The notes: generated by a model from the sequence alone, not told the origin. A stretch of DNA of 64,000 nt from Amoebophrya sp. A120 (GCA_905178155.1 CAJINV010000012.1:2870353-2934352); one strand, 5' to 3'. Shown: positions 1 to 63,760, counted from the first letter of the stretch. Numbers and translations: made by a program.

Positions 1-1439
1 GTCGCCTTGTATCAAATGCAAAAATGTCTGGGTCTGGAAGAATGCAAGATTTGCCTTGCATATTTCGCATGCCCCATGATTGTCTGTGATGTATGCCCTA
101 GCATCACAGGTTTTTAGAACCCTTCCTGATGCACCTTCCGCATGAGAAATGCCCTGTCCGTGTAGCACAAATTGTACCCCTCTTGCTGCTCATGCAATAC
201 AAATTTTGCTAGAATCCAAAAGCAGCGTGACAAGTTGCAATCTTCCAGACCCAGACATTTTTGCAGTTGATACCCTGCCAAATGCGCAATCCGCGGACGG
301 TCGCGAGGGTCCAGCCGTTGTCGCGGAGAGTGATCAGTTGGGGTTTGAACCTAGTGTGTAATCCAATCCGGAGGATCAACGAATTGATCCCCCCATCCGA
401 CTCGTCACCCATCGGCCGGTAGAACGTGCTCGTATCGTTGTCAAAAGCGTTCCGGATCGGTTGTTGCGCCCGTCGCATCGCCAAATCGTGCTCGAAGGGT
501 TCGCCGTAGAGTGGTAACGTGCACCCCGTGTCCCAGAACATTTCCAGCTCAAACACCCGCCACTCCTCGACCACCGCGGCGAGATTCGAGACTGCGAAGG
601 ATTTCCCGCAGTCCGGCTTCAAAGGACCGTCGTACGCGCTGCAGCCCTCGTGAATGCGGTAGGACTTGGAGTCGAGAAGGGTTTCCTCAGTAAAAACGCC
701 CCCACCCCAATGCTGTCATGCAAATCTGCATGCTCAAAATGTTTCTCATGCGAAGCCCCATGAGAGCCCTTTGCTAGTCGTATTTTGGAACTTGTCCTTG
801 TGATGCTCCAATCAGCATGACGCGCTAGATCTGTCACACTGCTGAACTAGCTAAGTAAGTCGAGGACTACACTACGCGGCCAAACTTGTCATGCACGACA
901 ACCCATAAGCTGGTTGATTTGCGTAGCAAATTTCCCATCTTGACTATGGGGTGGGGATGTTTTTACTCAGGATAAAGGGTTTCCTGGGATACACCCGGGG
1001 CGTCCGGGTCGGTAGAGAGGGGCGTGGCTTGTTGTTGTTGGAGGGCGCGCTTATTTCGTTCGGAGGTGGAGGTCTGGGTGTTTTTTTTGAATTTCTTCGG
1101 AGGTTTCGGTGGCATTTCTGAACTGTGCTCCTCCGACGAGTAGTCGTTGACCTCTGGATCGTGCGGGATGGTCGGAATTTCGGCGTGGAGGGCTTGCTGC
1201 GCCGGGAGAGCAAGAGTTCCACCAGAGGAAGATCTCTCGGAGAAGAGGTCGACATTTTCGCCGCAGACGGGCTGCAGAGAAGCGAAGCTCGCGAACAGCA
1301 CAACGGCGAGATGAGCAACGAATACGCGCTTTGTCTGGGTGTTCGGGCAGCTGGTGGCATGATCTTCACTAGGTGGCCGGGATTTGCGACGTCGCCACCT
1401 GATCCACTTCCAGATGAAATAATGGCCTGGCTTCGTCAT
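1..1439 (-). CDS. Hypothetical secreted/membrane protein with possible galactose-binding (F5/8 C-like) domain; 3' end runs off the window
   Basis: ORFs 963-1460 and 209-622 join in frame (VSQETL-LDSKSYRIHEGC...KPDCGKSF) once element 682-974 plus one DR is removed; hydrophobic segment AHLAVVLFASFASL; NAFDNDTSTFY motif; start uncertain. Confidence 0.6.
10..272. mobile_element. Introner family A (TIR core TGCAAAAATGTCTGGGTCTGGAA), 263 bp
   Basis: TIRs; DR CCTTG/CCCTG; can be read as GT-AG. Confidence 0.9.
682..974. mobile_element. Introner family B (TIR TATCCTGAGTAAAAACG), 293 bp
   Basis: DR AAGGG; left terminus TTT; no GT-AG register. Confidence 0.9.
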
Positions 1440-2084
1440 CAGGATGAATGGCGTTAGCACATCGTTTCTTTTGAAGGTGCGTGCCTGGCTAGTCGTTCTT
1501 ACGCCACCATCAGGGTCAGTGTGGAGACCGCTTTGTAAGGGCCCATCCTAGAGAGACCCGAATCGCACGGCGGATCCAGCGGTCGCCATTGCGCCAAACA
1601 ACCATTGACGACGGACCCGCGGAGGACCAGAGAAAGCCAAAGGAAGCGCTACACGGAACCGGAAGTCAGCTCGCCGGCATCTGCATTTGCGTCGCGATTC
1701 TCAGTGATTCTAGGTGAACGAATCGCGACTAAAAATTGAAGTATAGTATTTGGAATTGGCTGCCCTCACATGAAGGAAACTCTCGCTAGACTTCTCTCGA
1801 AAAAGATGACTCATTGCTACGCTCTCGTATGGTAAAAAGGGCTTCTCGCTTCCTCTCGCCGTCACCACCGCATTAAGCGCTCTTTTCCTTTTTCATACTC
1901 GTGGCCCTCGTGTGCAACTCAGACTCCTGACGCAAAGTAGAGTAAGACAGAGGGCCCGTCCCTCCGAGTTTGCGAGCGGACCACATACGTCGGCCACGAC
2001 ATCAACGAACACCTCGTCCCCGCCCCATCGTTTATCGTTTCTTATTATTTCACAATAACAATTGCGGCGACCACATAGATAGAG

Positions 2085-4885: not shown

Positions 4886-7800
4886 TCACACCATCACAGA
4901 AGTCACCGGCTGATGGACGGGGGTAGACGTAGAGGTAATTTCTTCAGAAGAAGCCACTGTCGTGCCCCCCGGACAATTCTGCTCCTCGTCCTCCGAAGTT
5001 CTTATTGAATGGGAAGATTCACGAGATCCACGTGGTTGTTCCTGCACACAGAACTTCTCATCCGCATTCATCTCCTCCTCTCCGTCAAACTCCTTGGACG
5101 AGAAACAAGCGCCGGTTGGTGACAGCAACACGACACTTTCAGCACTCGGAGCTGCTGCTACTGCTGCTGCCCGCGGTGATATGGTCGTCGTACAACTAAC
5201 TTCCGTTGATGCGGTTAGTTCCTCCTCGCTTGCAACGCTCTCGCGTCTTGGATCCGGCAGAGCGGAGCGCCAATCCTCCTGACCGCCGCACGGCACCTCC
5301 TCATACTCGACGCTCAAGTCACTGCAAAGCGACTCGCGACCGGAGATTCGATCCACGTTCAGTATCGCATGCACATCATATGATCCATCGTTCACACCAC
5401 CTTGATGTTGTTCCGACATCATTTTTGTTTTGATGTTCATCCCCTGCTCGTCCTGCATAGAAGTGGTCTCCCGCTCCTCGCTCGCCGATCTCACTCTTCC
5501 TATCCGGAAGGAAAAATTCTCCGGCTTGTCCTCGCAAGACACGATGATTTGCTTCACTGGTAAGCCTATCAAGTGCAAAAATGTCTGGGTCTGGAAAAGT
5601 GTAAACTTCTCATGCAGATTTTCCATGACCCATGAGGTCTGGAATGCGGGACGTAGCATGACAGACTCTGCGAGGTCTCTGCCATGCCTATCCTGCATGA
5701 GAACCTCCATCCTAACTTGGTCAAATAAAGTGGACAGCTTTTAGGAATCACGCAACACAGATTTTGACATGATTCAGGTTTACCAGGACAAGTTGCCACC
5801 TTCCAGACCCAGACATTTTTGCATTTGATAAAGCCTCTCGCCCGTTTGATCTGAAACATTTCCTTCCAACTGGCCTGGCAGCGGTTGCAGCGCGTCGCGA
5901 CCTATGCATTGCAAAAAATATGTCTGGGTTTGGGACTTGTGATGTTAATGTGCGAATGGTAGGCAACCTTCATTACGGGGCCACGCATGACAAGTTTCTG
6001 AGCGAGGACTACGTCTTGCATCAACCGCATGACAACCTGCATTTTTGCATGACACAAAAGAAGCAGTGTAACTGTTGTAGGGCATCACGCAATACAGCTC
6101 TTTCTCTCCTGTCTGCCAAGCATGACAAACCTTACATTCTTCCCGACCCAGACAAATTCGCGGTTGATACAGGCAACCCGGACCGAAGAATCGGGATGAC
6201 TCGGGCGTGAAACGGACATTGGGAAGAGGAGGAACTTGTTTGTTGCTGTTGGGTTGATGATGATGTTGTTGAAAAGGAATTGGAATTGTTCCCTGGCCCG
6301 GTTTCGGATGATGAATTTATCCTGGGCAAAAGTATCGTAGTCGTAGTAATCTTCGCAGTCATGCAATACAAGTCTTTTTCTTAAAGTAAATCCGCATTAC
6401 AAATTTTATTTCTTATGTAATGCATTTATACGAGTACGATACTTTTGTAATTCATATCGTTGGTTCTTCTACAACTCTCCTCGTACATGCTCCTGTGCCC
6501 CGGGCCGATACAACGGTGGATCTTCTTGTGCTCGAAGGCGTGCTGCAGCTCCTCCACCCGATCCGTGTGGTAGTATTCCAGGTAGGGAAACGCGGGGATG
6601 GTTCTGAAGGGGAAAAAATCCTCGGGTTGGGATGCGCTGGCGAAGGAGAACTGATGCTGGTCTTTATTTCCACCTATTCCTGCGGCTTTATTGATGTCCT
6701 CGCTCTGCTGTCTTTGTCTCTCTATGAATTGCAACAGTATCGTACTGTTATGCATCACAAATCTATCTAGGCGCTAAGGTAAATCCGCATTACAAATTCA
6801 ATTTGCCATGCTGAGCCAATTTGTCATGCTATTTCTACTAGTACGATACTTTTGCAATGCATACTCTCTTTGTTCCGCTCCAATGTTTGCGCTTGGGTGC
6901 GACCATAATTCTCGGCGAGTTCTTCCAAGTGTTATGACAGTGCACAACTTCCCCCCTCATTTCTCATGCAAAATACCAACCCCACCGCTTGCCTCTTGGC
7001 ACGGTTTGCGTGACAAGTTCTGGTAGCCCAAATAGCACTACACTCCAGCGCAAATTTGTCATGCAAAACCGGCATTCTTGCTGATGCTTGTATTGCCGTG
7101 CATGCTATACAAATGAGGGGGAGCGGGAGTTGTGCACTGTCATAAGTGCCGCACGTGATCGAGGAGGTCCTTCACTGGTGCAGCGTCGACGCCTGAAGGT
7201 CATGAGAGGTTTAGTTGTAGAAGTTGTCATGCGGTGTAGTGCATGTGAGTGCGGTGTTGTCATGCTGATCATGAAACGCGAATATTAAACTTTCGCGCTC
7301 GCGTACGATCATTATTAAACAAGCCACATAACTCGTCCTACACCAGGAAATCTACCATACCTTCACTCAACGTTTTGCACCCTAACCGCCCCTGCGTGAG
7401 CATGACTTTCTGGCCCACCATGAAAAACTCGTGCTCGACGAATTGCGGGAAGCCGTAGAAAGGAAGCGACGTCTGCTCCGATGGATCTTGCTTGAAACGG
7501 GCGACCGGAGGCTTGAGGGATTCGAAACCTGGTTTGATGAGATGTGAAGAAGATCCCTCATTGTTGTGAGGCTAATAAAACTTCTGATGCACATGGTTTA
7601 TTTTTTGCACCCTTTCTGTAGACTCTGGATCGAACATTTTGAAGCAGAAAACAATAATCTGCATCCACCGCTGCATGCAAAATCGCAACATAGTCATAGT
7701 AATGTTCTGTAGTACGAAATATCGCCTCGCGGAGCATCTCGTACGCGTCGTCGAGCCACACCGGCATTGAATCAATCTGGCTTCTCAAGTCGTGCTCTTT

Positions 7801-10344
7801 CCGTTCTGCTTCGTCGGCCCTCTTTTGTTCTTGCTCGAACTGGTACTGAAGCCGCAGGCAGAGCTTTTGGTAGAACTCGATGCTGTTCTTCTCTGGAGGG
7901 GAGTTTGAAGAGGAACTTGTTCCTCTCAAGTCCGACGGTGGAGAGGAGATCTTCGCTACAATCGACTGCGTACAACTACCTTGTTGCGATGAAGGAACGG
8001 CAGCTGGATCGCGTGTCGTGCCAGGACTGTTTTTACCTGGGTTGGGAAATGGTCGTCCTCGATAGGGCAAATTTAGAAGAAGAAGTCCTGATTCAATACT
8101 TATGGGCTCCCACCTGGAAAAGGACCGACTCAACATACAACATCTTTGAAAGGAAAGAAAGGATACATGTTGAGAGCCAAAGGTTTCTTTTTTTGGTGAT
8201 GTCAGAAAAGAAAAATAAACACACCTTTCTGTTCCTTTCCGTCACCGTTACTATTTGCTTCCCCCGTTGTAATTATATCACCCGCAGTAGTAGTTCCGGA
8301 TCCTGCCTTGTCCAGCGGCTTCGCGGCTTCCCGCAGCATGGCCATGTCGTCGTGAGACAGAAACGCCACTTTGCTGTCTATCACAGTAAATTTCCCGTAC
8401 ACGTACAAATGTGGTCTCTGCATGACAAACTTTTCTTCCAGTCCTATTCAGCATGACAAGTGGCATGCTCCAACTTGGTAAAATGTGTCATGCATTTTGT
8501 ACACGTATAGGAAATTTGTATTGCATACTGTCACCGGGAAGATTATCCAACGAAGCTGCTGATCTTCCGATCTTAAATTGTGAATTTTCTTCTCGGATGC
8601 TGTCGATATCCCACTTCGCGTCAGTTGCGGTACTACTGGTAGTACTGCCACCGCTGCTAATTGATGTAGTAGTAAAAGAAGTCGCGCCACTCTTGCTCGC
8701 CTCGTCGCTAGCATCCTCGTGATTTTTCCCGACAACTGCCTCAGCAGGCACCAGGCGGAAAGATCCTACCTGCAGAGATGGTGGAGCAACGCAGTTTTTA
8801 TCAACATCTGCAGGATCTTTATTTGATATTTCCTCCTTCGGACTTCTCCGATTTTCATTTTCGGGCGTTGAACTCGGACTCGCGTTTTTAGAAGAATTTC
8901 CGCTCGCCGGACTGCTGGACTTGTTGTTAAGAAAACCGATGCCGTTCAACATCTTCGCGGCCCCGACGTTAGTAGAACCAGTACTGCTACTAGCATTGTT
9001 CCCCACTACACCACCCGGCTGCACAACCACATGCACGGGTGAGCCGCTCGGTGTACTTCCATTGCTGTTCCGGGTCCGCCACCTGCCGCTCGGCACGCAC
9101 CCACCTCTACCCGATCTTCTGCCGCCCTGGGATGTGCTCGAGGTATTGGACAATTGCCCGCTCGATTGCTGCGACTGTTGCGAGAAATTCGACTTTTCAG
9201 TGTCTGTTGGGGAAGCTACATTGCTCCTGGTCGTCGTCGGGTTAGCTTCGATAGAAGAGGAGGTTTTTGATAGATTCTGACATATTTCTCTTTGTTCACT
9301 TGCAGAAGAAGAAGAGGAAGTGATATCTGGTGCAGCACCTCCAGACGCGGCTGCTAAACCAAGAACAGAGTGGTATTCCGAGCGCTCCTGCTGTTTGTTC
9401 GTGATTCGGTAGTTCGGTTTTGAATTCGGACTGCTCTGCTTGTTCATCGGTATGTTGGAATAGAGATGTTGCTGACCTGGCCCAGGCACGGCAGCTCCTA
9501 CATTTCCTCCTCCACCTGCTGCACTGGAAGTGCTACTCGAGCTCGACGCGGGTGCTGTGGACGTTTTACTGGAGATTGTTGCTCCATCGCCTACAACTCC
9601 ACCTCCTGTGTCTAGCCGGAAGCTCCGAAACGGGTTGTTTATCTGCAGCTTCGAAATATCTACGTCCCGAAGGTTCGTGAAAAAAGAGGGGATAGTTGTA
9701 GCAGTACTAGGAGCTCCTTCTTTATTTTCTTCTGATTGAAACAAGAAGTCGGCTACTTTATTTGCTGTCGGGTTTGTATTGTTCGTCGTCAAGTGTTGTT
9801 TAATATTATGGGTTTCAAAATCGGTAGTATGAGATGTTGTCGACGTCTCAGGTGTTGTAGAATTGGTGGAAGGGTTCTCGTGCAGCGGAGATGGATTCTT
9901 TTCAAGATCTCCGTCACGGATCGATGGGGGGCTACTTTCGCGCACAATCGTATCCTCGGTGTGGAAGAAGTCGCCTTGCTTTATTTCCGAAGGAATATTT
10001 GTACCAAGAGCGTCCGTCTGTGCAAATATGTAGTCCTTGGAGCTGCTCGTCATCGTTATGTTTTGTACTAGGGTTCCTGAAGGTCCTGCTCGTAGTTGTA
10101 ATACTCCTCCTCCTGCTGCACAAGAATTATTTCCAGTCGTAATATCGTCATCCAGAGCGGGCGCTACTACACACGAACCGCCACCGCGGTTCAAGGTCGT
10201 GGTACTATCGTCATCCAGAGCGGGCGCTACTACACACGAACCGCCACCGCCTGCTGTGCTCAGATGCATCGTCGTCTTCGTCGGTTTAATTTTTCCTTGC
10301 TGATCCAACTTGTAGCTTCTTTTTTGTAAAAAAGAAGCACTCAT
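4886..10344 (-). CDS. Large multi-exon hypothetical protein (Ser/Thr/Gly low-complexity N-terminus, coiled coil)
   Basis: One continuous frame can be built from ORFs 8488-10344, 8202-8423, 7558-8136, 6426-6758, 6132-6371 and 4886-5710 by removing 7 introners and 2 GT-AG introns; no family recognised. Confidence 0.55.
5567..5830. mobile_element. Introner family A, 264 bp
   Basis: TIRs; DR AAGCC; GC-AG register possible. Confidence 0.9.
5903..6169. mobile_element. Introner family A (diverged), 267 bp
   Basis: Degenerate TIRs and DR; flanking Gs give a GT-AG register. Confidence 0.75.
6318..6456. mobile_element. Introner family C (TIR core TGCAAAAGTATCGTACT), 139 bp
   Basis: TIRs; DR degenerate; removing element plus 5 bp keeps frame. 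Confidence 0.7.
6723..6863. mobile_element. Introner family C, 141 bp
   Basis: TIRs; DR CTCTC. Confidence 0.9.
6933..7144. mobile_element. Introner family D (TIR TATGACAGTGCACAACT), 212 bp
   Basis: TIRs; DR AGTGT/AGTGC. Confidence 0.9.
7562..7692. mobile_element. Degenerate introner, 131 bp
   Basis: Short IR TGTTGYGA; DR CTCAT/GTCAT; removal restores frame. Confidence 0.5.
8379..8527. mobile_element. Introner (family J), 149 bp
   Basis: TAT...ATA with IR AAATTTCC; DR CTGTC; joins LPGD-SKVAF. Confidence 0.85.
10143..10250. repeat. Intragenic tandem duplication (about 45 bp, period 63)
   Basis: Encodes GGGSCVVAPALDDD twice. Confidence 0.85.
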
Positions 10345-11768: not shown

Positions 11769-13777
11769 TCACTTTTCCTTCTTCACGTCCTCCTCCGCCG
11801 TTGTGGTTTTGTCGTCATCCTTTTTGTCCTTCATTTCCACCTATGCGCTGCAAACATGTCTGGGTCTGAAAGATTGCGAGATCTGTCATGCTAGCCTGGC
11901 ATGACTCTGAACTCTGTGTTGCGTGGCCACAAACAGCCTCTCTCGGCTGTCATGCAAAAACGCAGCTTCTCATGCGAAATACGCAGCACAGAAGCAGAAA
12001 AAGTTTTGGCATGCTTCGCGGCGCATTACAGTGTGCTATATTATTGACTGACTTGCATCACAAGGTTCCAGACCTAGACCTACTTGCACTGGATACCACC
12101 TCTCCAGCGTCATTTTTCGACGGCGACGCTGTCTCGTCGTCGTCTGCACCAGATGCCGAGGAATCTTTCCCCTCCTTCTCCTTCTTCTCTTTTTTTTCCT
12201 TCTTTTTTTCCTTTTTCTCCTCCTTGTATCCTAAGTAAAAACGTCCCCGCCCGACGCGTGTCATCCTACAATCAGGATGGGCTGATCGATTTGTCATGCG
12301 ACCACACTACCTAAACACGATGATACTACGATGCCAGACTTGTCATGCGCAACACACAAACCCTTTTTGATTTGTGTAGCCATCAAGTCCCCATCTTTAA
12401 TACTCCGCAGCGCGGACGTTTTTACCAAGGATACCTTGCGCTTCTTTTTCTCCTCCTTTGTCAGTCGCTTTTTATCGTCGTAGTCCTCCTCGTCCTCTTC
12501 CGGATCGGGCCTGACGCCAAACACGTAGTACCGGATCACGTCCCAGCCCAACCCGACTAAACAGCAAACCCCGAGGAGATACAGGAAAATCCTCACCCGC
12601 GGGCTCTTCGTCTGCTCGCAGTCACAGCCCATCGCCCAGCTATGAACTGCAAAAGTATCGTACTACTATAAATTGCATGACAAATTCCCTCAGCATGACA
12701 AATGCAATTTGTCATGCTGATTTGCCTTGGGAACGAGATTTGTAATGCGTGTCTGCAATTAGTACGAGTACGATACTTTTGCACAGGATACCAGCAGTTC
12801 TTCGCTGACTCCCACTTGTCCTTCGTCACGTTCACCATCAGTCCCTCCGGATGCTGGTCCGTATGGAGTGCAAATATCCCTGGATGTCTGGAAAGGTCGA
12901 ACTTGTAATGCGTGTCTTGCATTCGTGGAGAATTTGTGTTGCATCAACAGCAAATGGGACGCTTCCCTTGCCATGTAAAAACGCTGTTTGTCATGCGTGT
13001 TTAGGCATCAGAAGGCGCTTCGAAAGCTTGTCATGCTTGGCTGCCATTGCAAGCGTTGCAATGATGCGCAATTCAGCATCACAGACTTCCAGACCCAGAC
13101 ATTTTTGCATTTGATAGTCCGTTTCGATATACAACTCCTCCCCCTCGCCACTGACCCAATCCAGCCCGCCGGTGAACATGGGGATTGACCAGGACTCCGC
13201 GATGCGCCGCTTGTACTCCCCCACCGGGCCGCACCGCTTCGCGAATTCGATCATTTTTTCCGCCTCCACCGCCGTCTCGGCGTTGGACCCGATTTTTTTC
13301 AACACCTGGCATTGCGGCGAACTATCCGTCTCGTTCACCCGCACTAAAATCTGGGAATCCGCGAAGGCAATGCCGGAGAAGGGGGACAGTTCGTCGGCGC
13401 GGGGGCACTCCTTCACCTTCACGCCTGGACCGGCTTTAGGACCCTGATTTGTAGTTTTTGCGATTTTCATTTCAATCAATTTCGGCTGGTTCTTCTTCTT
13501 GCCATGCAGCGATCATGCGCAAGAAATAAAGCAGAACCGATTTGATGCTGTGCAAAAAAGCTCGAAGATGATTGAAACAAAGGAGAAGTCAAAGTAGTAC
13601 CGTATTGAACTTGTCATAGTTGTTAAACAAGATCTTCGATCGCCCTCCATCGTATTCGAATGCCGCGTGCACTGGTACTGGCTCCGTCGTCAGGTGCACA
13701 CCAGCGGCAGTCAGGGTAATGGCTGCTTTTCGCATGGTTCTCAATTCTTCTATTATTTCAGGTGCTGTCTTACACAA
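11769..13777 (-). CDS. Hypothetical single-pass membrane protein with Lys/Glu-rich tail; start uncertain
   Basis: In-frame joins IETD-QHPEG, KNCW-AMGCDC, KKRK-EEKKE and GEV-EMKDK; TM segment IFLYLLGVCCLVGLGW; stop TGA at 11769. Confidence 0.7.
11842..12095. mobile_element. Introner family A, 254 bp
   Basis: DR CCACC; GT-AG register possible. Confidence 0.9.
12227..12433. mobile_element. Introner family B, 207 bp
   Basis: DR CCTTG; GT-AG register possible. Confidence 0.9.
12641..12790. mobile_element. Introner family C, 150 bp
   Basis: DR CCAGC. Confidence 0.9.
12862..13116. mobile_element. Introner family A, 255 bp
   Basis: DR GTCCG; no GT or AG in any register. Confidence 0.9.
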
Positions 13778-14960: not shown

Positions 14961-17900
14961 CTATCTTGGCGTCGTCCCGTCCATGTTGACATCCCCATCC
15001 TCTGTTACTTCCGGCGGTGCCATTTTGTAGCCGTGCTCCACCTATCAAGTGCAAAAATGTCTGGGTCTGGGAAAGTGCAAACTTGTCATGCAGATTTTTC
15101 ATGACCCACGAGGTGTGGAGTGCGGGACTTAGCATGACAGACTCTGCGAGGTCTCCGTCTCTCCCATGCCTATCCTGCATGAGAAACTGCCTTCCATCTT
15201 GGTCAAAAGTGGACAGCTTTTGGCACTCCTGCAACACAGATTTTTGCATGCTTCAGATTTACCATGACAAGTTGCAACCTCCCAGACCCAGACACTTTTG
15301 CATTTGATACCACCGTGAAAAACTGGTAGATTTTCTTCCGGAGCTCGTGTGCTGGTTTCAAGTCCTTCTTCGTGAACGAAGCTTTTGTGAAGGGGTCCAT
15401 ACCGTCGCCCATGGCGATTCGCTCCGCCGTGTCTCTGTTGACGATGTTGCCGGAAGGGAGCTCCACGGGATCGTTCATTACGATGTCCCTGATAGAGTAA
15501 CAGTTTTGGGTTTTTGCATGACAGATTCTTTTCCTCATTCGAGACCTGCATGCGAAATTTTCATTTTGGAAAACAAAAAAAAAACTTCAAAAAGTCGTAC
15601 ATTAACGGATCCATGTATTCCTCTGGTAGCGAGCCCACTTTCTGCTCGATCGCCGCCAGCTGGTCTTCCGCAGACCCCGTCTGCTCTAGTAATGCTTTGA
15701 CAAAGCTTGCGAACTCCTCAGACAAGTCTTTGCTTATCATGCCGTCGCGGCGGGAAATGCGGACAGCCTTTTCGAAGGTGTTGATGTTCCCCGCTCGAGC
15801 GTCGTTGATCACGTGGTGGATTACCTGTTTTAATATTTGATGTACGGGACAATAAATACGGTTGGATGTTGCGACGTCGTTCGTGCTGATTTTTCCAATG
15901 CGAAAACACATTGAGTTTGAGATAGCAAAACCTGCATCATTCAACATGGTAGTAGAACTTTCTGTACCTTATCCCTTTCTGTCCTTGCTATGACGACGAG
16001 CATCTCGATGATGAAAGTGAGCAGTTCCACCGGCTTGAAATGAAACTCGGCGTAATCTTTCTGCCCGCCTTGCTGCTTCAAATTCATGGACTTGGGGCCG
16101 ACAAGCCTGTGAGAGTTGTTGTGTCCTCGTTCATGCAATAATCATAATGTCCAATCCTGCATGACAGAAGCTATTTCTCATGCGCAGCGCTGCAACAGAA
16201 AAAATGTATCAAATACCTGTCCATGCAGGCATTCAAACAGTTCTGGACCATCTGCTGCAGAACCACGGATATCCTGTGCAAAAGTATCGCACTCGTAGTA
16301 ATTGCAGTCATGCATTACAAATATTTTTATCAAGGCAAATCCGCATTACAAATTCCATTTCTCATGTTTAGGAAATTTGTATTGCAATTCATACTAGTAC
16401 GATACTTTTGCAATGCATAACGGATTTTTTCGTCACGATATTACAGTGAAAAATGCCACCACCCCGGAATTTACAAAAGTTTCTCATGCAAAGTTTCCAA
16501 GTGAAAGCTTTTTGTCTTGCATGAGAGGACTACGAGCGTTTCTGATGCAGAATCTAGGTGCGCGAGCTATCTTTTGCATAACAGATCCGGCTACTGGTGG
16601 GCTCCTTTGCAACACAGATTCAAGCTATTCAGCATGGAAAATTTGTGATGCTGATACATGCAAGACGGGGAATGTTTCTATTGGAAAGGTTTGCAATATA
16701 AAGGGTGCCAAGCTTGGGGTAGGGGCATTTCTCATTGTGATACACGATTTCCGGTGTTTCTTTCACGATGGAGTGCAGGGTCTTAATCGTCCGGAACCCT
16801 AATTTCATGTAGGTGACGCAGTGCTCCTTGGGGTCTCTTCTGGATCTTCTGTACAAATCCTCGCCCTGCTCGTTCCTTTCGTCGTCCTCCATGCCACCGC
16901 GGTCGACGCCGACGCCTTTTATTTAGTGGAATTAGTGATGCAAAAACTACACGAAGACAGTGTCAAAGAAAATGAAAAATGCAGTTTATGCATGACAGAC
17001 ACAGAATCAATGATCACGTTCTTGAAAACACGCTCTATACCAGCCGCCGCCGTTTCCATCAACTCCTCGTCATTGATCTGCTCCCCTCTGGCTCTTCTCT
17101 CGGCCAACACTTTCCGTTTTCTTATCGATGCCAACGTGTCCATGCCCTCATCCAATTGCACCGTCGCATCCGACATCAGCAAGTTCAGGAACTTCAAAAA
17201 ATCGTCCTCCTGTTCGGATGCGAAATTTCTCAAATTTTTCCGGTGTAGCTCACTGGACTGGTTCCCAGAAATCAACAACCCGAAGAGTTCCATGATGGGC
17301 ACGCGGAGCTGGTATTTCAGCTGCATCCTGATATCGTAATAACTTTGTTTTGTTTTCTCCACCGCGTTGAAAACGAGCAAGCACGAGGGGATGATGTTCT
17401 GGACCACCGGCTTGAATTCCTGGAGTCTCGTCGCCCACCGCTGGGACTTGATCAAAAAGCTAATAATGTTCACCACTTTCCCCCGGGTACTCGGGTTCTT
17501 CACGTGGTCGCCCGCGCCGAGGAAGAAGACGAGCAAGAGTAAGAGACTGTCCACATCTACCCTTTGGTAAAACGGGTGCTGGGTCGTTGGTGGGTACTGC
17601 ACGTCGCGGAAATATTCCAAAATCGCGACGAGATTCTCCACCAAGCACGCCGGCAGGACCGACCACTCGGGGGAAACCTGCTTCGGGGGGATCGTCACAT
17701 TCGTGAACGCCGCTGCTGGTCTATCCGGGTTGTCGGCGAACTTCGGCTTGCATTCCGGGTAAGCGGCGGCGAGTAAGTACAGTTATGGGACTGTCAGGAT
17801 CGAAATCGACAAAGTCGAAAAATTTGTAATGCATAAAATGTAGAGCACGTATGGCCTGTGTTGGGGAGCAAGCAAATGAGACCGGTGGCAGGCCTGTTTA

Positions 17901-31540: not shown

Positions 31541-37598
<6,058 letters not shown>

Positions 37599-47015: not shown

Positions 47016-49214
47016 CTACTTCTTTTTCCCCTTCTTTCCTTTTTTCTTTTTTCCTCCTCCAAGCGCCTGCTCCAAAGCCTCGTAGGTCGATTGGGAACAC
47101 CTCTCGGGCACCTGGACCTCCTTCAAATGGGACAAACCGATCATGCCGTGAATCAGTTTTTGCGCGCCCACGTCCGATATCTGGTTGCCGACCAACCGGT
47201 AGACTTCGAGAACTGTGATGAAATTTTTTACTCAGTTAGAGTACAGTAGTCGAAGATCCTCGTGATGGTGATGCATGCCATCTGTGCTGTGAGAAAGCCC
47301 TTCACTAGTAGTAAGTAGTGTGTGTAAGTACTAACAACAGAAACACTCCTGCAACGAAAAATGAAAAACAATCAAGATACGCATGTTGTTCTGGAAGCAG
47401 TCCAGCAGGACGTCGAGTATTTCGGGTTTTTCGGAAAATTTGTTGTCCGCTAGGTCGAGAAGTTTCAGCTTTTGATTTCTCCTGACGCCCTTCAACAGCG
47501 CAAGCGCCCCCACTATGCATTGCAAAAATGTCTGGGTCTGGAAGTTTGTCATGCAGGACAGACATGATAGAGACTTCGCAAAACCTCTCATGCTAGGTGC
47601 TGCATTGCAGACCTCGGGGGGCATGAAAAACATGCATGACAAGTTTGCATTCTTCCAGACCCAGACATTTTTGCATTTGATACCCACGTCGCCCAGTTCA
47701 TTACCCCGTAAGAGAAACTGCTCCATTTCTGACTTCTGGTACATCAGTATCGTCGCTAGCGGAGCAGTATCCATTGTAAATATGTATCTGGGTCTGGGAG
47801 ATGATTGCGACAAGGTTTGTCATGTTACTCTAGCATGAGAACTCTGAGCTCTGTATATTTGTGTGGCCGCGCAAAGCTCATCTTGCCTGTCATGCAGCAA
47901 AAACGCCATTTCTCACGCGGAGTACACAACTCGAAACCACGTCATGCTTGGCAGCGCATTACAGTCGTGTGCTCCCTCGTTATTCCCTTCCTTGCATCAC
48001 AAGTTAATATTTCCAGACGCAAACAAATATTTGCAAGGCATAAGCGCCACCCTGCGGCCCGATTGCGCAGTATTGGACGGACAGGGCACGGAGGAACTGA
48101 ATTTTTGGTTTTGCTTTTTGTCATGCAGCCCCCGCAACACGAACACGAACGCATTCTGTCATGCCGGCACACATAAAAAATCAATGATTTGCATTTCTAC
48201 TTATACGTGATTCTGTGCCAGCCCGACCGCTAGCTTCTCTACGCCCTTTGCTCCTATGTGGTTGTAGTCTAGCCTCAAGTAGCTTACTGGCGGTACTAAC
48301 GCTAATTTTCCCGCTACTCTCTCGCGCCCGCCGAGGGCCATACCTGGTTAATATTTTTCTTCGGTTTTGAAATGAATGTCGCGGCCGTGATTTCACGACA
48401 TAAACGGCATAGAGTACTTTTCTTTCATAGGTCAAGGTCGTTTCTGCTGTGCATGATAAACAAAAGCAACAGTAGCTACTACCGATGAATTCGCAGCCTA
48501 GGTCTGTGACATTATTGTCCGTAAACTGCAGATCCTCCACCACTACGCCGTTTGGTGACTCTAGGTAGTCGCAAACCGCCCGCACAGATTCATCGCCCTT
48601 AGGGTCGCACTTCCACAGACGCACATTCGAAATTTTCTTGTACCTGTATGAAATTCACTTGTGGTTTGAACCTCCATGCGGTTGTTGCAATAATGACATT
48701 TATCATATGAGAGATGCAAAAAATGATAGATTTAGACTCTGTCTTGCAGCAGGATGATAGCATAACTACAAAAAAGTAGCGGTTCTCACTGAAGATGACT
48801 TTACTCTGCTTCCCTCAGACTGTGCATGAGTATGTTGAAGCCCATGGAGTCTAGTGGCTCGGTGAAGTTCCATCTTATCTGCATGGGGTCCATGCCCTCG
48901 TCAAAAAAGCCTAATATCTTCTCCACGTCCGGTGCAGGTTTTAGGCCGTACCTGTGGTTCGCAAAAATGAAACAAATCATGGCCGTGACTAAAGGGTTTG
49001 GTGTAGAATGGTGCAGCATGTGCATCATTGTAGTATCAGTATGTCACAACCAAAAGTGCCAGGTCGGTGTTCTGCAAAATAAATGACATCATTCAGAAGC
49101 ACCAGTATATGATCAATACTGCTTCATGGCCTTCTGGTATATCCTCTGAAAGGCCTCCCATGTCTCATCCTCTCCGCCGGCTGCTGCGGCCTTTGGCTTC
49201 GCTTTCGGTGGCAT
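47016..49214 (-). CDS. RNI-like leucine-rich repeat protein
   Basis: Starts MPPKAKPK; LRRs LQFTDNNVTDLG, LRLDYNHIGAKG, LLRGNELGDVG and LDLADNKF; basic C-terminus. Confidence 0.8.
47514..47682. mobile_element. Introner family A, internally deleted, 169 bp
   Basis: Full TIRs; DR CCCAC. Confidence 0.9.
47768..48042. mobile_element. Introner family A (diverged), 275 bp
   Basis: DR AGCAG/AGCGC. Confidence 0.8.
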
Positions 49215-50135: not shown

Positions 50136-52802
50136 TTACGCTCCGCCCTTCCTCCCCTTCTTCTTCTTGCGTGAAGAGGACACAGTCGGGCTTATTTTGG
50201 GCTCCTTGACCTTCTGTTTCTCTTCGTTTTTTCCCGCCACCTCCTGCTTATCATCATCACAGTACGCAGGATCCGGCTTTGCCCCCGGGTATCGAAACCC
50301 AGGACAGAAATTCGTCTCGCCGCAGATGGCGAACGGGACCGAGCGCCCGATAGAAGCTGCTGTGGGTTCATCTTTTATCTCGGAATTATGAATACCCGAT
50401 GGTCCATCAACTGTCGTTTCATCCTCAACTACTGGAAGAACCTCGTTTACCTGCAGGTGCAAGTGCGGCGTCGGCGTGAACCCCGCTTGCCCCGACGTGC
50501 CAATCTTCTGCCCAATCGAAACTTTGTCACCGACTTTGACGAAAATTTTGTCCAAGTGCACGTACTCAATGCGGTACTGTTTATTGGATAAAAATTTCGG
50601 AGAAGAAGGTGCTGGCGACAATTCGACAGATGTAGTTTTTGAGCATGTAGGATTTGCATTTTTGCCAGGACCTGCAGAACAGCTCCTCCTGGACGTCTGC
50701 TCATCTACACAGCCAAAACTATAATTCTTGCTATCATTCCCCGTGGCACCGCCGTCAAACTGGATTGCGATCTCGTTCCATTTCCACAGGTTCCGCACGT
50801 GTGGCCCGCAGAACTTTTCGTTTCCTCCCCGGACCTCCACAATTGTTCCGTTTACCAGGGAAACCACCTCCGTCCCAACTTCGGCGTCGATATGCATTGC
50901 AAATATGTCTGGGTCTGGAAGGTTGGAACTTGTAAAAATGCTAACTTTCCATACCTAGGAATTCTGTATTGCATAGCAAACAAAAGTCGCGGCCTCTTTT
51001 GTACATGCAAGAACGCAGTTTCTCATGCGGATTGCCTATGAGAAAGCGTTCTGGAAAGTTGTCATGCTGGGTTGCATTCGGAACTGTTTCTATCATCCAC
51101 ATTTTAGCATCACAAGTTTCCATACCCAGACACTTTTGCATTTGATAGTCGAAGTCCACCGCATAAAAGGTCGACGGGTCCTGGCCGTGGGTCAGGGTTC
51201 CGCCGAAACCCTGGCTGCACGGGAATCGCTCTACTTCTTTTGCTTGTATGCATTGCAAATATGTCTGGGTCTGGAAGGTTGCAACTTGTGATGCTGGCTT
51301 TGGATTCTAAAAAAGATTTGTATTGCATGAACAGCAACAGAGGTGCAATTTTTGCTACGCGGAGAGGGCTTCCCTCATGCGGTACGAGCATCAGAAAGCC
51401 CTCGCAGAATCTCTGATGCTACAGCATGCATCACAGACCTCATGGGTCATGCACAATCTGCATGACAAACTCCTGCACTCTTCCAGACCCAGACATTTTT
51501 GCATTTGATAGCTTGCGCAGGAGTGCTATTTGATGAGCGGCGGTCAACTACATTGCCTTCCTGCAATTCCACCGCCTGGAGGGAATCGGAATGACAATGA
51601 AGATCTTCTGGAGAACTACTACCTCTCCGTCTCAGCGGAAAGACCGGAAAATCAAATCGGCAGTCGGTGAGAACTCGTTTCGGAGTTGTGTTGTACTGGC
51701 TTTTGTCGATTTGTTTCTGAAAGGAAATGTTGGTTTCGATTTGGACATCCGGTGCAAGGGTGTAAGGCGGAGGGGAAAACTCATCCTCGTCAGACTCCAC
51801 CTCCTCCTCCTCTTCCTCCGGAACTGAGGCCGGACTTCCAACAACCTTTGCCCCAAACGGCACCTTCCCGGTTTCTGCGAACGCTTCCAGCAAGTTTTCG
51901 TAGCGACCCGCAGGAGTGTTGGGAATGAAACCCGGGAACGCACAAACCTCGCAAATTGAAAACGGGGGCAGGTAGAGCACGAGGGTGATCACGGTGGAGG
52001 CTTTTATTTTTTTGGTCGATGTCATGATCATGTGCTCTGGCTTCCCCTCGACGTGGTCGATGTCAGGCCTGTCGTGCTCCCTCTCCTTCTCTACACCGGT
52101 ATGATTTTCGTTTTCCTTGTCATTTTCTCCCTCTCCAGCAAGCAGAGCATCATCCTCTTCCTCAACCTGTGCGGGGCAGGACTCTAACAGGACATAGCCG
52201 CCGTCGAGCAGGTGTAAATTCTTATGACTTTCGCCCCCGAAAGAACTCTTTTCCGTTCTCCTTTTTGGCGGTCTTAACACCGCCGGCCAGTTGATAGGAA
52301 AATAGTTCTTGTCCTGCTGTTTCTCTCCAAAGAAGATCTCGTCGTCGTCCACATCTTTAGATACAAGAACGTCGGTACTACGGGAGGTGCCACCACTGCT
52401 GCACCTCCTAAAAATCTTCTCCCCCTTCTCGTCTGCTTGTCCACGAGCTCCGGGGAGTTGAAACGTGACGTGGAAGCAGACGTTCCTAGCGTGTTTGTTC
52501 ACCACGTTGAAAATCCCGTCTTGAAACGCGTAATCAGGTAAAAGATCTGCGTAGTACCGTTCCTTTATTTCCGCAGCAGAAAAAGTAGTTCTACTTGGGT
52601 AGTTCCTCGTATCTTCTTCTTCCAGGAGGTCCACCTCTTCAATGGGGTACACTTCCTCCAGTCTTTCCGGGCGGCTGAGCGCCCAAGACGGATCTTTGTC
52701 GAAACAGAACCGCTCGATGTGCACCCCGGGCCAGCAGTGATTGGTTTTCAGAAACCGCGCGGGAGGAGGAGGAGTATTTCGGCTCGAACTTGAAGACGTC
52801 AT
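50136..52802 (-). CDS. M23 family metallopeptidase domain protein
   Basis: SQGFGGTLTH..YAVDFD; YVHL..VKVGDKV..GQKIGTSG..G..PHLH; 2 introners. Confidence 0.85.
50891..51147. mobile_element. Introner family A, 257 bp
   Basis: DR GTCGA. Confidence 0.9.
51247..51510. mobile_element. Introner family A, 264 bp
   Basis: DR GCTTG. Confidence 0.9.
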
Positions 52803-54172: not shown

Positions 54173-54279
54173 GGTTGTGGACATAACTACGAGGTGTACA
54201 ACAACAAATCAGGTTGTGGACAAGACTACGACGTGTTATCAGGTTGTGGACATAAGCAAAATCTATCCTCATACGATCA

Positions 54280-55930: not shown

Positions 55931-56860
55931 TCAAAGCGGCTTTCCCATGAGCATGGCAAACCCCATGGCGATGCCGCCGTACACCACGAACCCCGCGTGC
56001 ACCGGCTTCACCCACTGTGGCAGTTGCCGATACGTGGTCTGCGTCAGGAACGGCACTCCCAGCTGATTGTAATGCACGCCCACCGCTCCGAGTAACCCCC
56101 CGGCGTAGAAGTTGTGGGACGCAGACCGTCGGTTCGTCAGCGCTTCCAATGGACACTGCAACGCTTGGTAGAGGTAGCAGCCCCCGAAAAAAACGCCGGC
56201 GCGGCGGGCCGTTATTGGCGTCTGGTTCTGGGTATCAAATGTAAAAATGTCTGGGTCTCGAAGATTGCAACTTGTCATGCCAAATCCGAATCATGCAGAA
56301 ATCTGTGTTGCATCAGTGCCAAAAGCTGTCCACTTTCGACCAAGTTTCTTTGGAGGGAGTTTCTCATGCAGGATTGGCATGACAGAGACTTCGCAAAACC
56401 TGTCATGCTAGGTCGTGCATTCCAGACCTCATGGGGCATGGAAAATATGCATGACAAGTTCGCATCCTTCCAGACATCCAGGGATTTTTACATTTGATAC
56501 TGGGAGTAATCGAGCAGGAGGAGCAGCCCCGCATTATCAAATGCAAAAATCCCTGGATGTCTGGAAACTTGTGATGCTGGGGGGCGTATCATGAAGAGGC
56601 CACAAGTGCTGGCTCAGCATGACAAGTTACTGAGCTTATAGGTGTTGCCTATTCTGCATGACAAACTGCGTTTCTGCATCACAGAAAAATGGAGCTCTTG
56701 GGTAACGTGCATGACAGGTTTAAGAGTCATGCCAGACAAGCATGACAAACATGCATTTTTACATCTCATACGCATTGACCAAACCCGATTTCCCCGCCTC
56801 GAAAGAACAGGCGACATAGTCGAAGCTGGAGCCGCTGGAAGATCTACTTAAAACGGTCAT
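55931..56860 (-). CDS. Tim17/Tim22/Tim23-family-like membrane protein
   Basis: Spliced MTVLSRSS...GVFFGGCYLYQALQCPLEALTNRRSASHNFYAGGLLGAVG; pattern resembles Tim17/22; 2 introners. Confidence 0.6.
56233..56499. mobile_element. Introner family A, 267 bp
   Basis: DR CTGGG. Confidence 0.9.
56535..56770. mobile_element. Introner family A, 236 bp, truncated right TIR
   Basis: DR CGCAT; inverted near-copy of 62788-63039. Confidence 0.9.
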
Positions 56861-57164
56861 TTTTATCCTCTAGCAAACATGATTCAACACCTGCACGATT
56901 GCAAATAATAATAAACACCCAAGACAAGAAGAAATAAATATGCAGTCCAGCTTAAACTTACCAATTTTAAGAGGGCGATTGTAGTGAAAGCGAGGAATAA
57001 AGCAAGCGTCTCCTAAAGCGTGATTGTCTGGCATACTGAACTTCAGGCGGGCGCGCATTGAAAAAAAAATCCAAATAAGGAAGTGAAGTAGTCACTTATG
57101 TAAAAACAGATTGAGAAGCCTCAGGCACAAGCACGAGAAGCACAGGGAAGTACATTCTCCAGAA

Positions 57165-60454: not shown

Positions 60455-63400
60455 CTACTTGTAATACCGTGGCTCTTTCACCACCAGCATCTCCTCCGGT
60501 AGGATCGACCGCAGAAAGATCGTGACGTCCTTGTGCGCCGAGGTGACAAACCTCTATGCAAGAAAAAAACGTTGTTAGTATAAATCTGTGATGCGCAATG
60601 TGCCAATTGATTGCGCCTGTCATGCTGGGCCTGCATAGCGGGGCCCATTCAAGGGCGTTTTCCCGTACTATCCGCGCATGACAGGTTTTTGCTGTGATGC
60701 GAGAGATATTTGTCATGCTAATCCTCCAAGAAAGTTACACATACAATGTTTTTTTCTTGGATAACCTCCTCTCCGTGTTTAGTAACGCTACCATGGTGTT
60801 CAGAACGTCCTTTGCCTTGTCCGTGTGCAAGACGTTCTGATCCAGCAACGGTTTCCCCGCCTCCTCCGGGTCTTCAAGGGGTAATCCCGTGTAGGTGTCG
60901 ATTTTTTGCTGATAGGTGATCGCGTCAAGCAGGATACTGACGGCTAATTCCAGCTTCTTCTCAAAAATCTCCTTCACTTGCTCCGCGGTCTTCTTTTTGG
61001 GCTTGCGCTTAGGAGGCGGCGGGGGCTCCGGGTTTTCGTCGCGCTCTGGCAAGTCCTCGAAATGATCTTGGACAACGTCAGACCTTTTTGTTTTTGTTTT
61101 TGATTTTCAAAAAATGCATGATGAACATCAACATGAGGCGACCAGAATCAAATACAAATATCATGCGCGGACAAAACAGGAGCTATTTTTATTTGAGTAG
61201 GTGTAAAAACTCTGGTCAACATCATGTGTACTTTTCAAAAAATAAGTCCTCTCATCAAGAAGAACATACCGTTCCTTAAACCCCTTGGCTTCCTGACGTG
61301 CGATTTCCGCGGCTTCTATCAAGATGAAAAATCCCCCCACCCCATATCGAAAAGGAGATCTGTGATGCTGATCGGATTTGTCTTGCAGCGAAGGACTGCA
61401 GGCAGATATAAAGTCTGAGCATGGTGTTTTCGTGTAGGCGCCTAGCAAGGCAGGCGTGTCCTCTGTAGGCCATACAGCATTACAAATTGCCTGCAAAGTG
61501 CGGCGATGCGTCTGGATTTGGCTTCTTGCAATACAGAGACGATTTGTGGTCACTAATCAGCATCACAAATCTTCAGAAGTGCCCCTTTTTGGTATGGGGA
61601 GGGGAGATTTTTCCTCTCAATAGCTTCGTTGCTGACCCCCGACTGCGGTTTTTCGGGCAGCAGCGCCTCCAGGTTGAGGAGTCTGTCGTCGAAGAACAGC
61701 CGGCCAAACGCTTTCAGACAGGTCGTAAAGCAGCTCCGCGTGAACCCCTCCAACACCGTGCTGGTGGCGTTCTTCTGCAGTTTCGCCCACAAATCGTAGC
61801 AGGACCGGACGACTTTTCGGTCCACAAAGCCGCGCTATCAAATGCAAATATGTCTGGGTCTGGAAGGTTGGAACTTGTAATGCTGGTTGTCCATTATACC
61901 TCGGGAATCTGTATTGCATAGCCAACAAAAGTCGCAGCCTCTTTTGTACATGCAAAAACGCAGTTTCTCATGCGGATTGCCTATGAGAAAGCGTTCTGAA
62001 AAGTTGTCATGCTGTGTTGCATTCGGAACTGTTTATTCCATCATCCACATTTTAGCATCACAAGTCTTCAGACGTCCAGGGATATTTGCAACGCATACGC
62101 GCACTTTATAGACGACGGAGAAGTCGCGGAGGAGAATGACCGCGGAGCAGCCGTTATGCAATGCAAAAGAAGTATTTTTGCACTCGTACTTCTAATCGCA
62201 GTCATGCAAGACAAAAAATATTTTTCAAGCTCAAGCAGCATGACAAATTCCGTTTGTCATGCTGAGCTAATTTGTATTGCAAAAATATTACGAGTACGAT
62301 TTATACTTTTGCAATGCATAGCCGTTGTCGCAGTAGTCCACCACGTTGCTCTCCTCAACCTTGTGGCTCCAAAAGAAGCAGATCTCGCCCTCCTGGGCGT
62401 TCAGCGAGCCAAATGGGGTGTTATGGATGTGTCAGAGTTGAAATCGACAAAGTTGAATAAATAATCTGTCATGCATAAAATGGATGCCAGTTGGAACCCA
62501 GTTTCCAAGTGGCGCATGACAAATTTCGGTGGTCCCTAAATCCAGTTTGTCATGCTGTTTAGGCAAAGAAGGGCGATTTTCTCATGCTACTTTAGCAGCT
62601 CGAGCTGTAACCCCAAACAGGCTTACAATCGGCCTCACTTGCCTGCTCTGCAACACACGTGCCTCGGGTCATGCATTCTATGCATCACAAATTATTTCAC
62701 CTTTGACGATTTCAAACCTGACGCACCCATAGGTGTTCATCACATCGTAGATCGGCACGTCCTCGATTTTCGTCCGGGTCGCCTCGTTATCAACTGCAAA
62801 TATGTCTGGGTCTGGAAGAGTGCGCGTTTGTCATGCTTGTCTGGCATGACTCTTAAATCTGTCATGCACGTTACTCAAGAGCCCCATTGTTCTGTCATGC
62901 AGAAACGCAGTTTGTCATGCAGAATAGGCAACACCTACAAGCTCAGGAACTTGTCATGCTGAGCCAGCACTTGTGGCCTCCTCATGATACGCCCCCCAGC
63001 ATCACAAGTTTCCAGACCCAGACATGTTTGCATTTGATACTCGTCGGCGTCATTGGTGACCGCGTCGGTCTTGTAGTGCGAAAGCACTTGCTATTAAGAG
63101 GAAAAATCCCCCCTCCCCATATCGAAAAGATACGCTTCCGAAAATTTGCGTTGCTGATTTGAGACCACAAATCACGCCTGTCTTGCAAGAAGGCAACTCC
63201 ACAAGCTCCGCAGCATTGCGCAGGCGGTTTGTGATGCTGATAGGCCTACAGCACGGACGTTCCTCATGCTAGACGCCTAGGCCAAAACCTCTCTACTTAG
63301 GCTTAGTATGGGCATGCATTTCTCTCCAGCAAGACAGATCTGATTTGTGTACGCAAATCCTGCATCAGAAACTTCGTTTTGATATGGGGAGGGGGGATTT

Positions 63401-63760
63401 TTCCTTTTGATACTTGCGTTGTGTCCACAAAGGGGTCGAGGGCTGCAGTAGATGAAGATCATGATGGGTTTTTGGATTTGTAATTCACGGATGCACTACT
63501 CCTTGAATATGAATTTGAGCCATCCAACAACGAAAACATAGCACGCTTAGAGTGTTCTTACACTGAACTCTGAGGCTATCCTGTTCACCCAAAAGCATTA
63601 GCATTACAACACAGCAGTGCTATACCAGCCAGCCGATCTATGGTTGCTTTCGCGAGGACGTTTTGTTCGTAGTTTGGCAGGTACTTTGCCAGCATCAAGT
63701 GCAGCCCATCCGCCAGCTGCACCGTGTTCTCATCGAATGATATCCGACAGAAAAAAAGTG
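60455..63760 (-). CDS. Hypothetical multi-exon protein; start uncertain
   Basis: Continuous frame DPFVDTTQVLSHYKTDAV..YDVMNTPFG..DRKVVRSCYDLWAKL..EPRYYK* after removing 7 introners and GT-AG introns. Confidence 0.65.
60555..60763. mobile_element. Introner family G, 209 bp
   Basis: DR ACCTC; GT-AG register possible. Confidence 0.88.
61317..61622. mobile_element. Introner family I (TIR TAT..AGA.GAAAAATCCCCC), 306 bp
   Basis: DR GCTTC. Confidence 0.9.
61836..62097. mobile_element. Introner family A, 262 bp
   Basis: DR CGCGC. Confidence 0.9.
62155..62320. mobile_element. Introner family C, 166 bp
   Basis: DR GCCGT. Confidence 0.9.
62422..62731. mobile_element. Introner family F, 310 bp
   Basis: DR GGTGT. 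Confidence 0.9.
62788..63039. mobile_element. Introner family A, 252 bp
   Basis: DR CTCGT. Confidence 0.9.
63092..63412. mobile_element. Introner family I, 321 bp
   Basis: DR CTTGC. Confidence 0.9.

Follow-up and report, generated by a model that had tools for sequence, protein, structure and literature searches.

Within a 64-kb window (64,000 nt) of the genome of the marine parasite Amoebophrya sp. A120, coding exons are interrupted by 50 transposon-like introner elements, which carry terminal inverted repeats (TIRs) and are flanked by 5-bp direct repeats (DRs). Wherever a check was possible, these elements are removed from the transcripts together with 5 nt, at boundaries that do not depend on GT and AG and that appear to be set at a fixed distance from the element ends. 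Unless stated otherwise, counts and coordinates refer to this window. The elements are the introners described for A120 by Farhat 2021 (PMC7789003), so that the observation holds but concerns a class already in print. It is a rediscovery, because introner elements of A120, their 5-bp DRs and the idea of a hairpin are already contained in that paper.

The text of PMC7789003 gives 66,565 RNA-supported introns for A120, 65% of them non-canonical, and describes the introner inverted repeat as TAT, seven weaker bases and then at least three As, with direct repeats of 3-5 nt and hairpins. Direct repeats of 5 bp are mentioned in the legend of its Fig. S19, and the border is called 'unknown' or 'variable' in the legend of Fig. 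3. Core spliceosome proteins and U2, U4, U5 and U6 are reported there for A120, U1 small nuclear RNA (snRNA) was not found, and the removal mechanism of the non-canonical introns is called open. The elements studied here share with the published introners (PMC7789003; 'TIR DNA' families of PMC12130899, in the text concerned) the organism, the TAT-N7-AAA terminus, the 5-bp DRs, a length of ~150-320 bp, RNA-backed removal and the hairpin model, and do not differ from them in kind. A fixed cut register, GT/AG at chance level, insertion in both orientations and an internal box are not described in the parts of the text of these two papers that were available to us, and the register and the box are likewise absent from the corresponding text of PMC11282704 and PMC12787238. 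A literature search, with figures and the subscription papers Roy 2023 and Henriet 2019 outside its scope, yielded no paper on the removal mechanism.

The elements are 139-349 bp long. A preliminary description of this DNA, made from the sequence alone, had listed 51 of 131-349 bp; the elements are real, and both the number and the lower limit of length had to be corrected. Their termini follow a matrix of TAT, seven weaker bases and an A run (TAT-N7-AAAA). TAT...ATA ends were found in 47/50 elements, the exceptions (682, 32890 and 38804) having one variant end each, and the 5-bp DRs are perfect in 38/50, carry one mismatch in 9/50 and are decayed in 3/50 (5903, 6318 and 47768), which confirms the termini, TIRs and DRs of the preliminary description. 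A second element finder, which ignored the flanking bases and was thus blind to DRs, was run on the window and on 128 loci of a metagenome collection retrieved with a 30-base terminus pattern (the 80 listed all belong to assembly JACKZZ01); 0/128 of these outside loci overlap the unique DNA of the window. This finder recovered a perfect 5-bp DR in 31/38 window elements and in 175/220 outside elements. The frequency of the 5-bp DR greatly exceeds chance, because a perfect 4-bp repeat occurred once and a 6-bp repeat never among the 220.

All 50 elements lie in coding sequence, though this makes up only 49% of the non-element DNA (a figure for which the gene spans are partly our own open reading frames, ORFs); enrichment of introners in genes is described as a general phenomenon in the text of PMC9860276. 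All traced genes are on the minus strand, and insertions are clustered within them: 18 of the 49 gaps between elements are shorter than 100 nt, many measuring 46-67 nt and the smallest 14 nt. Neither a transposase nor an autonomous element copy was found in the window, and no Rfam family matched anywhere in it. The intergenic stretch 2000-3700, with 64% GC and short repeats, contains no introners, therefore GC content alone does not explain the targeting of exons.

The first line of evidence for precise removal comes from the host proteins. UFD2, rebuilt without 9 elements (each with 5 bp) and 5 GT-AG introns, is identical over 1074/1074 amino acids to CAD7965456.1 (GSA120T00007367001), the UFD2 model deposited for Amoebophrya sp. 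A120. DBP2 (P0045) and the 1237-amino-acid P0044, rebuilt without their elements, also match deposited A120 models. In these three genes, deletion of the element plus 5 bp reproduces the deposited proteins at 21/21 testable sites, in agreement with the preliminary description, according to which such deletions restore the frame; rebuilt DBP2 also places insertions inside the TPGR (33543) and GDGP (34186) motifs, just as described there.

Reads were examined over 15620-35600. In the raw RNA run X9, 320 + 312 reads join 16270 to 16743 via eight letters matching the predicted micro-exon exactly, therefore elements 16270 and 16439 were both removed with one DR copy each. The same joint is carried by one contig of run X3, whose pieces match the locus with 0 other letters; run X10 contributed 18 reads. 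Removal is thus seen directly in RNA for 2/50 elements, neither of which has AG in any register, and at these two the check by RNA reads proposed in the preliminary description gave the removal without GT-AG that it had foreseen. Run X5, taken as DNA from its depth pattern, has a depth of ~30x on the flanks and of at least 10,000x on the elements, and its contigs pass from exon into element with ~24-33x coverage; among the joints listed for it, that of 16270/16743 has depth 0, though contigs can lose rare variants. One of the X5 joints reflects an insert of ~87 nt (28293-28379) inside element 28180-28528, which the other family copies lack. At 17056, every X9 read has C>T, absent from X3 and X5, which is either a strain difference or an error in a single amplified cDNA. 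Loose ends of X9 and X3 at DBP2 are not continued into the next exons of the window; they likely come from other DEAD-box genes and were not used.

The cut position, defined as the number of upstream DR bases kept in the exon (0-5), can be placed only where the DR is mismatched. The deposited P0044 model requires exactly 4 at 6318 and allows 3-5 at 5903, so that only 4 fits both. In DBP2, Lys437, conserved in all 6 other aligned sequences with residues there, limits the position at 32034 to 4 or less, and the E of the A120 model at 32682 demands at least 1; contigs of X3 that end at 17778 and at 24602 are, indirectly, compatible with at least 2. Among the outside loci, the ETF-beta PLAV motif of PDB 1EFP sets at least 4 at L067, a kinase F/Y match favours at least 1 at L070, and position 0 would introduce stops at L018 and L061. 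The loci L004 (SNF2) and L076 (aldo-keto reductase) were also tried and did not place the cut, and 31/37 exon pieces had no Pfam hit. Position 4 is the sole value that fits every model and RNA constraint, and it is probably general, the intron starting 1 nt before TAT and ending 4 nt past ATA. With such a fixed offset the introns would read N-U-A-U...A-U-A-NNNN. This register agrees with Table S4 of PMC7789003, where, in the part available, T is second in all nine leading non-canonical donor classes of A120 and of A25 each. The A120 family table of Gozashti et al. 2025 (PMC12130899) mixes registers between families, among 21/58 rows.

The elements (entered with strand '.') and their host genes are listed below; end dinucleotides are those of the inferred register, position 4, unless another register is named.

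10..272,., introner element, ~263-bp family; DR 4/5; GT-AG
682..974,., introner element, ~280-bp family; DR 5/5; acceptor-side terminus variant; TT-CT
5567..5830,., introner element; DR 5/5; TT-CT; in deposited model P0044
5903..6169,., introner element; decayed DR 2/5; GT-TC; model permits cut positions 3-5
6318..6456,., introner element; decayed DR 2/5; AT-TT; model permits cut position 4 alone
6723..6863,., introner element, ~150-bp family; DR 5/5; GT-GA
6933..7144,., introner element; DR 4/5; TT-AC
8379..8527,., degenerate introner element; DR 5/5; GT-CA
11842..12095,., introner element; DR 5/5; GT-TG; another register could give GT-AG
12227..12433,., introner element; DR 5/5; GT-AG
12641..12790,., introner element, ~150-bp family; DR 5/5; GT-TG
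12862..13116,., introner element; DR 5/5; CT-GA; GT/GC/AG in no register
15043..15309,., introner element, UFD2; DR 5/5; GT-TG
16270..16419,., introner element, UFD2; removed with one DR copy in RNA; TT-CG; AG in no register
16439..16742,., introner element, UFD2; removed in RNA, leaving a 14-nt micro-exon; GT-GT; AG in no register
17784..18089,., introner element, UFD2; DR 4/5; TT-TG; contig end compatible with cut position of at least 2
18172..18381,., introner element, UFD2; DR 5/5; AT-GC
18876..19129,., introner element, UFD2; DR 5/5; AT-CC; GT/GC/AG in no register
19250..19406,., introner element, UFD2; DR 4/5; CT-TG
20109..20388,., introner element, UFD2; DR 5/5; GT-TC
20440..20698,., introner element, UFD2; DR 4/5; TT-CC
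24605..24890,., introner element; DR 4/5; GT-AA; contig end compatible with cut position of at least 2
26311..26573,., introner element; DR 5/5; CT-GA
27827..28109,., introner element; DR 5/5; GT-GC
28180..28528,., introner element with internal ~87-nt insert; DR 5/5; GT-CC
28586..28850,., introner element; DR 5/5; GT-GA
32034..32183,., introner element, DBP2 (DVKDIK); DR 4/5; GT-TT; conserved Lys gives cut position of at most 4
32682..32833,., introner element, DBP2; DR 4/5; AT-TG; model gives position of at least 1, orthologs have the position-0 residue
32890..33154,., introner element, DBP2; acceptor-side terminus variant; GT-GC
33543..33804,., introner element, DBP2 TPGR motif; GT-CG
34186..34462,., introner element, DBP2 GDGP; CT-GA; GT/GC/AG in no register
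35081..35342,., introner element, DBP2; AT-TA; another register could give GT-AG
38804..39030,., introner element; acceptor-side terminus variant; CT-TC
39093..39307,., introner element; GT-GA
40006..40266,., introner element; GT-TC
40319..40623,., introner element, ~305-bp family; CT-TC; GT/GC/AG in no register
44711..44969,., introner element; DR 4/5; AT-GA
47514..47682,., introner element, short copy; GT-GG
47768..48042,., introner element; DR 3/5; TT-GC
50891..51147,., introner element; CT-GA; GT/GC/AG in no register
51247..51510,., introner element; CT-AG
56233..56499,., introner element; GT-CA
56535..56770,., introner element; GT-GC
60555..60763,., introner element; TT-GG; another register could give GT-AG
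61317..61622,., introner element; CT-AG
61836..62097,., introner element; GT-GC
62155..62320,., introner element, ~150-bp family; CT-GG
62422..62731,., introner element, ~310-bp family; CT-AC; GT/GC/AG in no register
62788..63039,., introner element; GT-GA
63092..63412,., introner element, ~321-bp family; GT-AA
14964..21013, minus strand, host gene UFD2 (E4 ubiquitin ligase); 9 elements and 5 GT-AG introns; 1074 amino acids
31544..35404, minus strand, host gene DBP2/DDX5, amino acids 29-540 of model P0045; 6 elements and 5 GT-AG introns
4889..10344, minus strand, host gene without Pfam family, model P0044, 1237 amino acids; 6 elements

When the boundary is slid through the DR, U2-type GT/GC-AG ends can be obtained for 7/50 elements, and none of GT, GC and AG for 10/50; in the inferred register alone, 2/50 have GT-AG ends. 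The preliminary description had named eight GT/GC-AG cases, of which seven hold, the removal of element + 5 nt in the deposited model giving GT..TC at 5903; of the seven elements said to offer neither GT nor AG, six hold, while for 682 an extended register would allow GA-AG. Larger numbers were obtained with a codon model, which oriented 163/220 outside elements and was correct for 48/50 window elements (its training partly overlapped with these). In the resulting set of 200 elements, from which 57 unorientable outside elements and 13 elements with a DR below 4/5 are excluded and which forms 13 multi-member clusters, GT/GC-AG registers occur in 13/200, the chance rate (null 12.0). Both orientations are used about equally, as seen in the six largest families (23/17, 18/18, 10/16, 13/12, 9/12 and 7/5). 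Selection for a GT donor supplied by the last DR base was considered and rejected: the excess of G in the window (24/47, p = 0.001) falls to 42/153 in the outside set. The boundaries are not selected by GT/AG, because the registers are at chance, both orientations are used and the element ends fold together.

This folding is strong (z < -2 in 47/49 elements, median z -5.6), and yet pairing at the extreme ends is loose. Stem positions 4 and 7 are complementary in just 109/200 and 82/200 elements, and in the sense stem G-U wobble pairs are no more frequent than A-C (110 vs 150, 200 elements). DR homology is dispensable, since 6318 and 5903, with a DR match of 2/5, are still removed exactly in the deposited model. 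The preliminary inference that TIR pairing and the DR, not U1/U2AF dinucleotides, set the boundary thus stands as regards the dinucleotides and fails as regards a perfect DR. Among 184 oriented elements, TIR positions 1-2 are altered at 0 donor ends and 5 acceptor ends, and 38804 is a further acceptor-side variant beyond this count. A yUnAy motif lies at -7 on both ends in 73/200 elements. Ordinary introns start with GTA in 16/18 GT-AG introns of the window, ten of them model-confirmed and the rest chosen by us.

A second possible signal is an 8-mer box, GCA[TA][GCT]A[CG]A, often located ~41 and ~72 nt in from the element end. It occurs 24 times per kb of element interior and in 50/50 window and 163/163 outside elements; the pattern was picked by eye from the window elements, and the outside set confirms it. 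GT-AG introns contain it in 11/18 cases (6.6 per kb), against a background of 0.4 per kb in exons and 0.3 per kb in intergenic DNA. Private changes affect box positions about half as often as the other interior (94/6464 vs 434/15320), the TIR being similar, a gap that is possibly inflated by alignment anchoring and rarely sampled subfamilies. Selection for mobility may explain this constraint as well as selection for splicing. The GT-AG intron at 16107-16216, confirmed by RNA, has a perfect 5-bp DR in the element register, TAT after the G and three boxes, and is likely an aged element turned canonical.

We suggest, with about even confidence, that the elements are removed from pre-mRNA by a relaxed U2-type spliceosome whose position is set by the ends of the element and not by GT-AG. 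As the 5-bp DRs, TIRs and two-way orientation suggest, a DDE transposase or integrase encoded elsewhere would make a 5-bp staggered cut and insert the element, mostly into exons. Removal of the element plus 5 nt, which RNA shows for 2 elements and deposited models for 21, then restores the target site, the cut being fixed, to judge by the few imperfect DRs, 1 nt ahead of TAT and 4 nt beyond ATA. The two ends might be brought into contact by TIR pairing and by a protein reading the TIR and the internal boxes; such recognition would substitute for the reading of dinucleotides by U1/U2AF and keep the +2U/+3A donor contacts of normal introns. We favour the relaxed spliceosome because the donor keeps +2U/+3A, core machinery is reported for A120, and tunicates provide a precedent, U2 splicing of non-GT/AG introns. 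With a spliceosome-like U-A kept at +2/+3, the 'excision system' of the preliminary description need not be non-spliceosomal.

Several observations weigh against this proposal. Use of the spliceosome is itself inferred, and neither lariat nor circle was seen, the listed back-joints having come from the DNA-like run. Canonical docking for the second step pairs +1G with the terminal G, and the elements are without these: neither +1G nor terminal AG is under selection, and the G excess was not replicated outside the window. The asymmetry between donor and acceptor termini is just 0 vs 5, the two sides do not differ in mutation at TIR positions 4-26 (1.70% vs 1.77%), and neither a branch-like yUnAy near the 3' end (27 vs 38) nor a TATG donor (34 vs 46) shows strand bias in the 200 elements. 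The register itself depends on about ten sites, and its lower bound of 4 on two (6318 and L067); the nearest orthologs, moreover, have D at 32682, the residue of position 0, where the A120 model has E. As for the reads, X3 is only guessed to be RNA, and X9 lies mainly in 15620-17620, its reads stopping at 17335 at what we take to be a template-switch adaptor, and they are possibly copies of one cDNA.

Non-spliceosomal removal from RNA, the main rival, is possible, if rather unlikely. An endonuclease would cut the TIR stem with 1-nt 5' and 4-nt 3' overhangs, RtcB/tRNA-ligase-type joining would follow, and circles might be released, as from euglenid nonconventional introns. Boundary dinucleotides under no selection, equal use of the orientations, the strong end-to-end folding and the failure to detect U1 snRNA in A120 (PMC7789003, in the text seen) all suit a nuclease and ligase, such as are suspected in euglenids, as do the euglenid introns, which also have asymmetric overhangs and are described as leaving as circles without lariats. 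However, the donor +2/+3 is invariant and the same as in the GTA of ordinary introns, the internal box is shared with GT-AG introns, suggesting a continuum, and terminal pairing is imperfect at the two stem positions given above. The version of the preliminary description, with TIR pairing and DR homology setting the boundary, e.g. by DR-guided strand exchange or slippage, is improbable. It accommodates the many perfect DRs in and outside the window and a removal that always comprises element + 5 nt, but not the exact removal of the two 2/5-DR elements; single mismatches are, moreover, spread over all five DR positions (8, 7, 3, 6 and 7), and a fixed offset yields the same product without homology.

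We consider it very improbable that excision takes place in the DNA during one life stage, in the manner of the internal eliminated sequences of ciliates or by precise transposase excision, with transcripts coming from element-free alleles. The termini, TIRs and subterminal boxes are indeed symmetric signals of a DNA type, and the register data fit transcription direction or element orientation alike, but X5 contains the exon-into-element contigs and, among its listed joints, none of 16270/16743, which is admittedly a weak point. Least probable, and hardly credible to us, is that the joints are artefacts of reverse transcriptase switching templates at hairpin-flanking DRs ('falsitrons'), the proteins being made from intact paralogs. 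A hairpin with a short DR is the known signature of such artefacts, and all RNA evidence is cDNA-based or from an undefined library. Against it, all three sense frames contain stops in 45/50 elements, homolog searches with UFD2 and DBP2 gave one A120-named protein each (1/43 hits each), elements with decayed DRs are removed too, and the X3 contig matches the locus without a single foreign letter.

A further reading, which we put forward tentatively and with some doubt, is an orientation-blind intron code inherited from the transposon. TAT-N7-AAAA and the paired boxes at ~41/~72 nt would be read by a dedicated, possibly transposase-derived protein that measures the 1-nt/4-nt offset and replaces U1/U2AF dinucleotide reading, and many GT-AG introns would be aged elements still using the code. 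If this were true, a new exon insertion in either direction would be harmless immediately, which would explain the genome-wide invasion.

Similar introns are known from other organisms, here as far as the cited texts extend. Those of Fritillaria borealis (PMC11282704, PMC13326754) share a transposon origin with TIRs and target-site duplications (TSDs), non-GT/AG ends and efficient removal; there, however, AG-AC/AG-AT is preferred and a U2 spliceosome with divergent U2AF paralogs is reported, whereas the A120 elements favour no end dinucleotide beyond +2U. Introns of euglenids and hemistasiid diplonemids (PMC12501133, PMC12621601, PMC11282704) resemble the elements in their paired ends, variable borders, TSD-like repeats and cuts at a set offset outside the stem. 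For Euglena the same papers describe introns released as circles, with CAG/CTG as the core at +4/-6 and a purine following the 3' end; the A120 core is instead TAT/ATA at +2/-5, and the euglenid pairing of CAG (+4..6) with CTG (-6..-8) is not found. Among DNA transposons, IS3EU/GingerRoot have TA..TA termini like the A120 elements (PMC10045372), and this integrase-related DDE family would suit the Copia/Gypsy-like ORFs of the TIR-flanked A120 family 38. Their TSD is usually 6 bp (PMC10045372), in contrast to the 5 bp of the A120 elements.

How tens of thousands of non-GT-AG introns of Amoebophrya are removed is an open question in print. The class is already known and no new system is added here, but the fixed register predicts exact intron ends. 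It would also correct gene models, in which some elements wrongly appear canonical owing to ambiguous DRs, and the conserved internal box might serve as bait for the protein involved.

Other repeats were noticed in the window. The GC-rich intergenic stretch 57161-59334 (2.2 kb) is bordered by a 28-bp inverted repeat (93%), contains many internal direct repeats and resembles another non-autonomous TIR element, unrelated to the introners. At 53717-54186 there are 199-bp tandem units, two identical and a partial third, with a 27-bp palindrome in each. A 99-bp sequence occurs at 52978-53076 and, 82% identical, at 55313-55411, upstream of two neighbouring minus-strand ORFs, and may be an upstream element common to both or the trace of an old duplication.

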